A stretch of DNA of 64,000 bases, taken from the sequence record OP172790; one strand, given 5' to 3'. This document shows positions 12,620 through 13,585 of this stretch, in pieces (position 1 is the stretch's first letter; every line of letters starts with the position of its first letter). The notes under the pieces are model-generated. The model worked only from the letters and a program-made list of their open reading frames with translations. It did no database searches and had not been told where the DNA came from. Position numbers and translations under genes: made by a program. The stretch comes from Escherichia phage ECO319P1.

Positions 12620-13585
12620 TTGAAATTCGAGAAATTCCAATCTCTCGTAAATGAGTCTATGAAGAACGTTGGAGGTTTCCTTCGGGATTCCTCCTTCGGG
12701 AAACGTAAGGCCATTGTTACCGAGAAAATCCACGGTGCTAACTTCTCTGTCTACTTCGGTTGTAAAGACAATGTGGTTGGTATCAACTTCGCTTCTCGTT
12801 CTCAGATGCTGTGCCCTGAAACTAACTTCATGAATTGCCAACGCTACTTCACTGAAGAAAAGATTCAGGAATTGCTGGAACATGCTTCCACAATCATGGC
12901 TCTGGACAAATGTGAACTTCGTATCATCGGTGAAATTTACGGTGGCATGGATATCGCTGGAATCAAACCCGTTCAGCGAGAAGTCCACTACTCCGGTGAT
13001 ATTGGCTTCCGTGTGTTCCATGCACAAATTGCCAACAACGAAACTGGTGAAGTCTTTGACTACAACTGGAAGAATGTGAAAGCTCTTGCCAAAGATTTTG
13101 GCTTTGAGGTCGCACCAATTGTGGCTGAAGGTCTGACCTTTGAACAGGCTTATGCACTTGACCAGAAGGTTAAGTCTGCTCTGTCTGACAAAGACCAGAT
13201 TTGTGAAGGTTACTGTATCCGCGTTGATGCAGATGAAGAAGGTCAAGCACCTTTAATCTTCAAGAAGCGTAATACTGAGTTCCTTGAAACCAAGGGCACT
13301 GTGAAGGCTCCTCAGAATACTGTAGAGCAGACGCAACTCGGTATGGAAGCAATGGCACGTATTGGTGCATTCATCACACCACAGCGTGTTTCTAACGTCA
13401 ATAGCCACCACGGTTTCGATAGTCCAAAAGACTTCCAGAAACTGATGGAAGCTGTACTTGATGATGTGCTCAATGAGTACAAAGCCGAGTATGACGTAGA
13501 CCTTCGCAATGAGTTGGTCTGGAAAGAAATTAAGCGTTCAGTTGGAGCACAGGTAGTGCCGCTGGTACGTGAAGTTCTGCTGTAA
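12620..13585 (+). CDS. RNA ligase, Rnl2-like (T4 RNA ligase 2 family)
   Basis: Nucleotidyltransferase motif I in context AIVTEKIHGANFS resembling T4 Rnl2 EKIHGTNFS; N-terminus parallels Rnl2 only if TTG at 12620 is the start (ACGGAG RBS upstream). Confidence 0.7.
   Translation: MKFEKFQSLVNESMKNVGGFLRDSSFGKRKAIVTEKIHGANFSVYFGCKDNVVGINFASRSQMLCPETNFMNCQRYFTEEKIQELLEHASTIMALDKCELRIIGEIYGGMDIAGIKPVQREVHYSGDIGFRVFHAQIANNETGEVFDYNWKNVKALAKDFGFEVAPIVAEGLTFEQAYALDQKVKSALSDKDQICEGYCIRVDADEEGQAPLIFKKRNTEFLETKGTVKAPQNTVEQTQLGMEAMARIGAFITPQRVSNVNSHHGFDSPKDFQKLMEAVLDDVLNEYKAEYDVDLRNELVWKEIKRSVGAQVVPLVREVLL

Follow-up and report, generated by a model that had tools for sequence, protein, structure and literature searches.

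In bacteriophage T4 the ligase of transfer RNA (tRNA) repair is Rnl1, which acts with Pnkp, while no biological role has yet been assigned to T4 Rnl2 (PMC3884662). Phage tRNAs together with RtcB, Rnl1 or Rnl2 have already been published as a kit against ribotoxins (PMC7824862; PMC9503650; Burroughs and Aravind; Iyer et al.), and phage RNA ligases were proposed to be non-redundant, each specialised for different RNases (PMC7824862). How does an Rnl2-type ligase of a small phage compare with these systems? We analysed a stretch of 64,000 nucleotides (nt) of Escherichia phage ECO319P1 (record OP172790; the window hereafter), which covers the greater part of a Crifsvirus-like podophage genome (Grimontviridae, Salmonella phage 7-11 group). 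An earlier note had read its gene at 12620-13585 as an Rnl2-type RNA ligase that starts at TTG and belongs to an RNA-repair toolkit with RtcB and three tRNAs. The gene does encode an Rnl2-family ligase, and we think it fairly probable that this is a stand-alone enzyme directly resealing RNA nicks with 3'-OH and 5'-phosphate ends, RtcB taking the other ends. The parts of the gene are as follows.

12620-13585, plus strand: gene of an Rnl2-family ATP-dependent RNA ligase, 321 amino acids (aa), TTG start; adenylyltransferase domain at about residues 1-222, flexible linker at about 223-233, Rnl2-type helical C-terminal domain at about 235-320.
12725-12727, plus strand: codon of Lys36, the predicted AMP-accepting nucleophile of motif I (35-EKIHGAN-41), aligned to T4 K35.
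13262-13270, plus strand: motif V codons K215-K216-R217, where K215 is T4 K225 and R217 stands in place of T4 K227.

The assignment to the Rnl2 family is borne out at several levels. Two Pfam domains match above their gathering scores, PF09414 (RNA_ligase) at 7.5e-17 over residues 31-215 and PF18043 (T4_Rnl2_C) at 9.9e-10 over residues 238-310, and PHROG 548, 'RNA ligase', matches at 5.9e-57 across residues 1-320. In a sequence search of the PDB, T4 Rnl2 (2hvq, 1s68) is the sole match, and residue 3 of the query is aligned with residue 3 of the T4 enzyme. Homologs of similar length number 38, nearly all with 99-100% query coverage. The AlphaFold2 model, built on 23 homologs, has a mean predicted local distance difference test score of 89.2 and consists of a mixed alpha/beta N-domain, a disordered linker (224-230) and a C-domain of four long helices (235-320). 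Its best fold matches in the PDB are full-length T4 Rnl2, 2hvr_A (Foldseek E = 2.8e-18, probability 1.00) and 2hvq, followed by Trypanosoma brucei REL1 and the T4 Rnl2 N-domain; the high root-mean-square deviation from T4 Rnl2 reflects a different orientation of the two domains. The protein is not an Rnl1-type ligase as judged by PF09511 plus the Rnl1 C-terminal domain, as PF09511 gives 16.8 bits, below the cutoff of 28.3, and its match is confined to the shared nucleotidyltransferase core. On the opposite strand there is an open reading frame (ORF) at 12533-13246 (237 aa), which was disregarded as a mechanical ORF within a strongly conserved plus-strand gene.

Conservation of the catalytic residues was assessed across 23 homologs, down to 26% identity. 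Motif I, 35-EKIHGAN-41, corresponds to 34-EKIHGTN-40 of T4, and E35, K36, H38, G39 and N41 are invariant. The residues that are kept from T4 to the ligase and invariant in the homologs extend over all motifs (T4/ligase): K35/K36, H37/H38 and N40/N41 in motif I, R55/R60 in motif Ia, E99/E105 and Q106/Q119 in motif III, F119/F133 in motif IIIa, E204-G205/E196-G197 in motif IV, K225/K215 as the first Lys of motif V, and the pair R266/D292 of the C-domain, which is R256/D282 here. In T4 Rnl2, Tyr5, Lys54, Asp120, Arg155, R266 and D292 are reportedly essential (mutational work by Yin et al., 2003, and by Nandakumar et al., 2004 and 2006).

Which RNA ends could such an enzyme join? An ATP-dependent Rnl2 needs 3'-OH and 5'-phosphate ends, and RtcB joins a 3'-phosphate or a 2',3'-cyclic phosphate to a 5'-OH. 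Anticodon nucleases of the PrrC/RloC type (HEPN) leave 2',3'-cyclic phosphate and 5'-OH ends, and for this reason Rnl1 of T4 depends on Pnkp as well (PMC3884662). We therefore looked for an enzyme that would heal such ends. Pfam on 24 ORFs, the larger otherwise unannotated ones included, gave no kinase or phosphoesterase domain, and NCBIfam and PHROGs on the immediate neighbours of the ligase gave no Pnkp or other end-healing enzyme. In six-frame motif scans, the primase-helicase gene is the one real gene with a Walker-A motif, and there is no DxDxT motif. Between them, these Pfam and motif scans gave no kinase, phosphatase, 2H or Metallophos enzyme, and the annotation of the closely related Cronobacter phage A24, including the genome part beyond the window, lists no kinase-phosphatase. 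The phage is thus one without a recognisable healing enzyme. It follows that Rnl2 alone could not join the ends left by PrrC or RloC, since it requires 3'-OH and 5'-phosphate and no kinase-phosphatase was found. The phage has another ligase that could.

22483-23610, plus strand: RtcB RNA ligase, 375 aa, PF01139 at 7.5e-80; the phage's other RNA ligase, with an unrelated mechanism.

The Pfam match confirms that RtcB lies where it had been reported. Compared with 2epg, the RtcB homolog of Thermus thermophilus, the segments MPDVHxGY, GxDIxCGV, GxGNHF, HxGSRGxG, HNxA and SSxHGAGR are all present, which we take to be the metal- and GMP-binding motifs. Its scores are below the NCBIfam equivalog cutoffs (188 vs 407). 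As a side observation, its best NCBIfam matches, both below cutoff, are PRK09588 (an RtcB family model of about 380 aa, 379 positions) and the PrfH-associated 'release_rtcB', and the phage RtcB may resemble the RtcB2 type of ribosome repair more closely than the canonical type of tRNA splicing.

Since no end-healing enzyme was recognised in the phage and there is a separate RtcB, direct resealing by the ligase is favoured. By analogy with T4 Rnl2, Lys36 would be adenylylated by ATP, the AMP would be passed to the 5'-phosphate of the nick, and the 3'-OH would then attack and seal it; the nick ends would be held by duplex or folded RNA, and the helical C-terminal domain would supply nick recognition. 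The in vivo job would most likely be to seal RNA nicks, for example in tRNA, that already bear 3'-OH and 5'-phosphate, the ends left by metal-dependent nucleases of the host (Toprim, HNH and PIN types). Cuts by metal-independent nucleases such as PrrC and RloC, with 2',3'-cyclic phosphate and 5'-OH at the ends, would fall to RtcB. Cleavage by the Toprim tRNases AriB (of PARIS) and P2-OLD yields 5'-phosphate and 3'-OH, and when a tRNA carried a single nick in the anticodon stem, both T4 Rnl1 and T4 Rnl2 'seamlessly repaired' it with no healing (PMC12409363, PMC12445682). This end chemistry and the healing-free resealing support a division of labour between Rnl2 and RtcB. The enzymatic activity, the in vivo substrate and this division are what we infer.

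There are several points that weigh against this reading. Against TIGR02307, the NCBIfam equivalog 'RNA ligase, Rnl2 family', the ligase scores 87.6 bits (E = 1.1e-24), below the cutoff of 197.15 bits, with an alignment over the full length (3-317 vs model 1-318 of 326). Because the score falls under the equivalog cutoff despite the family-level matches, the ligase is a genuine Rnl2-family member of a divergent sub-clade, outside the close T4 equivalogs. Five T4 residues are changed across the clade, R33 to T34, K54 to S59, D120 to H134, R155 to E170 and K227 to R217. In T4 Rnl2, K227 contacts the AMP phosphate and is required for adenylylation, and the roles of K225 and K227 have been described (PMC3149579). 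The second Lys of motif V is kept only in the two most T4-like homologs, and at least 90% of the clade has Arg, which retains the positive charge. R33 was reported essential in T4 Rnl2, while DraRnl has an essential Thr there, in TEKLHG (PMC1807946), which 34-TEKIHG of the ligase resembles. Considering the five changes and the low TIGR02307 score, activity or cofactor use could differ from T4 Rnl2. Some relatives raise a further concern. Homologs with 40-54% identity occur in the same genomic slot in seven metagenomic 7-11-like contigs, with varying neighbours, and in three of these (regions L007 6181-8381, L010 9962-10720 and L012 10758-12438) a Metallophos phosphoesterase of about 250 aa accompanies Rnl2 at a distance of 1-3.5 kilobases (kb) at most, with no RtcB within the loci of 13-17 kb examined. 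Two contigs have Prs-like and Nampt genes beside Rnl2 and the phosphoesterase downstream; one, L012, has both Metallophos and an RlaP nucleotidyltransferase (PF10127). This hints that Rnl2 of the Metallophos/RlaP relatives works on ends that need healing. Finally, no one nuclease or RNA is tied to the ligase, T4 Rnl2 itself has no settled biological role (PMC3884662), and for this clade the case is built from sequence and analogy.

A stronger version of the proposal would make the Rnl2 clade of 7-11-like phages a distinct stand-alone sub-family, a dedicated resealer of 3'-OH/5'-phosphate nicks made in tRNA or rRNA by metal-dependent defence nucleases, with RtcB covering HEPN cuts. We regard this as tentative, and on balance doubtful. 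The clade is marked by T34, S59, H134 and KKR in motif V, lacks a Pnkp partner and is often accompanied by RtcB; candidate nucleases would be AriB of PARIS, OLD-family Toprim enzymes, the HNH enzyme of retron PtuAB, and PIN toxins. If true, the phage would give a cleaner genetic system than T4 for the role of Rnl2, which has been open since its description in 2002. As a small phage that pairs Rnl2 with RtcB, with no end-healing enzyme found and no Rnl1, it could in any case be used to test Rnl2 against metal-dependent tRNases.

Does the ligase instead repair tRNAs cut by PrrC/RloC-type anticodon nucleases, as one toolkit with RtcB and three tRNAs? The third component of this proposal of the earlier note is the following.

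62263-62696, minus strand: three tRNA genes, Phe(GAA), Pro(UGG) and Trp(CCA), found by ARAGORN and with 63-67 bits for Rfam RF00005.

ARAGORN and RF00005 agree with the tRNAs that had been named, an Rfam scan of the whole window finds these three and nothing else, and the same three are annotated in A24. All three components are therefore in the genome, the general concept is in the literature (PMC7824862; PMC9503650), and in two distant relatives (L006, L009) RtcB and Rnl2 are only about 1-1.3 kb apart. What is weaker is the joint function, for which the only support is co-occurrence in one genome; no Pnkp-like enzyme was found. HEPN cuts give the cyclic phosphate and 5'-OH ends that RtcB joins unaided, so RtcB, and not Rnl2, is the plausible answer to nucleases of this type; the T4 precedent relies on Rnl1 and not on Rnl2 (PMC3884662); and from the ligase it is 9 kb to RtcB and 49 kb to the tRNAs, which are on the opposite strand. 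Moreover, the phage tRNAs do not include tRNA-Lys, the target of PrrC, and there is a simpler reason for tRNA-Pro(UGG). The codons CCA and CCT, which it reads, account for 68% of Pro codons in early/middle genes and 82% in late genes, in a genome with 44% G+C, so that this tRNA may simply compensate codon usage rather than replace a cleaved host tRNA. Cooperation of Rnl2, RtcB and tRNAs in the repair of cut tRNAs is thus loosely supported, and we consider it unlikely that the three form one toolkit in which Rnl2 repairs PrrC/RloC cuts.

Another possibility is that the ligase serves the phage's own nucleic-acid metabolism, for example by sealing RNA:DNA hybrid nicks with an RNA 3'-OH strand in replication or transcription, or in transcript processing. 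Enzymes of the T4 Rnl2 type do seal duplex nicks with an RNA 3'-OH strand (PMC3884662, PMC1807946), and the gene lies in a block of replication and nucleotide metabolism, upstream of primase-helicase, exonuclease, dCTP deaminase and NrdD. However, the phage already has an ATP-dependent DNA ligase, as annotated in A24, the related phage 7-11 replicates without the ligase gene, which is therefore dispensable for core functions, and the neighbours are variable accessory genes (Nudix, salvage genes of nicotinamide adenine dinucleotide (NAD+), macrodomain, RtcB). We hold this role to be improbable, to about the same degree as the shared toolkit.

Still less likely is a degenerate or re-purposed ligase, one that has lost adenylyltransferase activity or uses another nucleotide cofactor. 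It would account for the five changed residues and for the score below the Rnl2 equivalog cutoff, and the genes of relatives are often found among the NAD+ salvage genes Nampt, Prs-like, NadR-like and PnuC. On the other hand, the nucleophile Lys, the core of motifs I, Ia, III, IIIa and IV, and the first Lys of motif V are invariant down to 26% identity, which indicates selection for catalysis, and the changes are conservative (K to R) or seen in active ligases, as in DraRnl. An NAD+-dependent ligase, which was considered on account of the salvage neighbours in relatives, was rejected: the ligase lacks an NAD+-binding Ia domain of the LigA type, and the genes around it form an accessory region of variable content.

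The start codon deserves attention of its own. The start region and the gene before it are as follows.

12102-12614, plus strand: upstream ORF of 170 aa, PHROG 24263 (function unknown), with the ligase Shine-Dalgarno sequence at its 3' end.
12608-12622, plus strand: translation start region, with the GGAG Shine-Dalgarno sequence at 12608-12611 in the last codons of the upstream gene, the upstream TAA at 12612-12614 and the TTG at 12620-12622.

The TTG at 12620 is the first possible start past the in-frame stop; it lies 5 nt beyond the upstream TAA and 8 nt beyond GGAG. The arrangement GGAGTAA-N5-TTG is kept in A24, in Cronobacter phage vB_CsaP_GAP52 (GAP52) and in the metagenomic contig L016, whose protein is 81% identical, and the GenBank records of A24 and GAP52 already have the same start. 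An ATG is found at the identical codon in L017 (protein 67% identical) and in six contigs, L006-L011 (40-54% identical), and short N-terminal extensions are found in L012 and in Aeromonas phage LAh_9 (L014). The N-terminal pattern M-x-F-x-x-F/Y-x-S-L-x-N-E ranks with the most conserved segments of the family and is collinear with MFKKYSSLEN of T4. Within the first 12 residues, F3 and S8 are invariant and L9, N11 and E12 are at least 90% conserved in the 23 homologs. The next in-frame ATG is at 12659 (Met14), and a start there would remove all of them. Below about 55% identity, nearly all homologs have Pro or Phe in place of Met14, and most homologs have NENPK in this region. Between TTG and Met14 the three Crifsvirus sequences vary in five columns, of which four are third codon positions, a coding-type pattern. 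The claim that the N-terminus aligns with T4 Rnl2 only from TTG therefore holds, as 2hvq is aligned residue 3 to residue 3 and a Met14 start loses F3 and S8. By four independent lines of sequence comparison, TTG 12620 is well supported as the true start, and the predicted N-terminal peptide is MKFEKFQSLVNESMK (or fMet-KFEK...). A product of 308 aa from ATG 12659 is hardly credible: ATG starts are more common, and a weak GAG stands 4 nt upstream, but Met14 is unconserved, residues 1-12 are highly conserved, the homologs place their ATG exactly at the TTG position, GGAG is ideally spaced for TTG, and substitutions upstream of Met14 are of the coding type. Because the TTG directly follows the upstream stop and its Shine-Dalgarno sequence lies inside the upstream gene, the ligase is probably translationally coupled to the upstream ORF, and the arrangement suggests modest expression.

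How is the gene placed in the genome? The 2.3-kb stretch around the ligase has 84-88% DNA identity to A24 and GAP52, and the gene order is the same, with the plus strand of the window corresponding to the reverse complement of the A24 record. The ligase is within a long block of genes on the same strand. A scan for promoters and terminators around it gave fewer sites than shuffled sequence, and none convincing nearby. In order along the plus strand, the neighbours are as follows.

Upstream of Rnl2, plus strand: amidoligase/GATase/ATP-grasp cluster, 81-aa ORF, 177-aa Nudix, 75-aa WYL-like ORF, 61-aa ORF, 170-aa ORF.
Downstream of Rnl2, plus strand: 202-aa ORF, DUF7448 gene, gamma-glutamyl cyclotransferase, 169-aa ORF, primase-helicase.

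At the syntenic site of Salmonella phage 7-11 there is neither Rnl2 nor the 177-aa Nudix gene. As they are missing there, Rnl2 and, separately, Nudix are by sequence comparison accessory genes in Crifsvirus, and the ligase would be an accessory early or middle gene of 7-11-like podophages. In nine metagenomic phage contigs the clade keeps a fixed slot between the amidoligase cluster and the primase-helicase. The only isolated phages with a member of the clade belong to Crifsvirus and to Aeromonas Lahexavirus, and each has the gene annotated as 'RNA ligase 2'. Two of the contigs, L006 and L009, contain NadR-like, Nudt16-like Nudix, RtcB, 177-aa Nudix, Rnl2 and PnuC genes; homologs of the 177-aa Nudix are immediately upstream of Rnl2 in both, so that the linkage of Nudix and Rnl2 recurs in part of the clade. 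The Metallophos and RlaP relatives, with no RtcB in the loci examined, suggest alternative make-ups of an RNA-repair kit within one phage group. The ORFs of 170 aa and 202 aa that flank the ligase were considered as its partners and rejected as improbable, since their homologs in phage 7-11 are adjacent, 57 nt apart, with no ligase between. Neither flanking ORF has a family match, and the 170-aa ORF in particular matches nothing in Pfam or NCBIfam.

Some observations on the other neighbours may be added. The 177-aa Nudix hydrolase (11152-11685, plus strand) has a complete Nudix box, GYVDGNE-x7-REAEEEFG, and is weakly similar to ADP-ribose pyrophosphatases (YffH/AdpP). A 118-aa gene at 14284-14640 (plus strand), flanked by the 202-aa ORF and the gene for gamma-glutamyl cyclotransferase, is a near-threshold DUF7448 match (26.4 bits vs a cutoff of 27); A24 and GAP52 have no gene at this site, and L017 has an ORF of the same size. 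The cluster of phiEco32/7-11 type at 2476-10913 (plus strand) comprises COOH-NH2 ligase, amidoligase, glutamine amidotransferase and ATP-grasp (RimK-like) genes; it is conserved upstream of Rnl2 in most related contigs and is downstream in Aeromonas phage LAh_9.

Around RtcB, a macrodomain gene of TARG1/OARD1/DarG type (167 aa, 21980-22483, plus strand) overlaps the RtcB start with its stop (TAATG). It matches PDB 5e3b at 1.2e-13, OARD1 at 1.4e-10, the NCBIfam DarG antitoxin at 3.3e-12 and Pfam Macro only at 5e-4, and RefSeq names it 'phosphatase' in A24 and GAP52. The protein is likely an ADP-ribosyl hydrolase, possibly directed against DarT or another ADP-ribosylating defence. It was considered as a member of RNA repair, but an anti-ADP-ribosylation enzyme is more likely given the likeness to DarG and TARG1. 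In L006 and L009 a Nudt16-like Nudix gene takes the position of the macrodomain, its end either reaching into the RtcB start or lying 77 nt short of it, and in L007 a macrodomain homolog is about 1.3 kb downstream of Rnl2, beside a Metallophos_2-like gene. The window also encodes a PnuC-type transporter of nicotinamide mononucleotide (35383-36060, plus strand; PF04973, 3.4e-25) and a TerD-domain protein (28-594, plus strand), and the A24 record has Nampt-like and ribose-phosphate-pyrophosphokinase-like genes at 66597-69139, beyond the left end of the window. The PnuC, Nampt, Prs-like and NadR-like set looks like the NAD+ salvage or reconstitution module proposed against NAD+-depleting defences.

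How does the locus compare with the described systems as a whole? The nick sealers of Rnl5 type, DraRnl and NgrRnl, and Trypanosoma brucei REL1 share the adenylyltransferase fold and the His-containing motif I with the ligase, but all three are without the Rnl2 C-terminal domain, and DraRnl and NgrRnl carry an OB-like module at the N-terminus instead. The Pnkp and Rnl1 pathway of T4 is similar in that a phage ATP-dependent RNA ligase occurs alongside other translation-rescue genes; it differs in that the phage of the window has no Pnkp, a C-terminal domain of the Rnl2 type and no link to tRNA-Lys. T4 Rnl2 (gp24.1, rnlB; 2HVQ, 2HVR, 1S68) is alike in its two domains, KxHGxN and the other kept motifs, R266/D292 and the collinear N-terminus. 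Its identity to the ligase is only about 27%, and an insertion of about 20 residues before motif IV in T4 is absent here. T4 encodes both Pnkp and Rnl1, while neither was found in the phage of the window, which has RtcB instead.

Closer are the ligases of the Aeromonas phages LAh_6, LAh_8, LAh_9 and 4_4572 (Lahexavirus) and of the 7-11-like contigs, with 40-54% identity and the common signatures TEKxHGANF, ASR, KKR/KRR in motif V and TPQRVSNVNSH. The contigs keep the genomic slot of the window's ligase, while the gene order around the ligase is different in LAh_9, and these ligases have ATG starts and variable neighbours, unlike the TTG of the window. The closest are GAP52 gp042, 'RnlB' (YP_006987722; record JN882286), with 96.6% protein identity, and the 'RNA ligase 2' of A24 (QQG33690), with 94.4%. 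Both agree with the ligase of the window in synteny, nearly in length (321 and 322 aa) and in TTG with a GGAG Shine-Dalgarno sequence, and RtcB and the tRNAs Trp, Pro and Phe are annotated in both genomes, as in the window. The ligase differs from theirs by point substitutions only, and the window has the extra DUF7448 gene downstream. Thus the ligase, its TTG start, RtcB and the tRNAs were already in the public annotations of sister phages, and the concept of the repair kit was published. Since the GAP52 and A24 records and this concept precede it, the finding is correct but ordinary.

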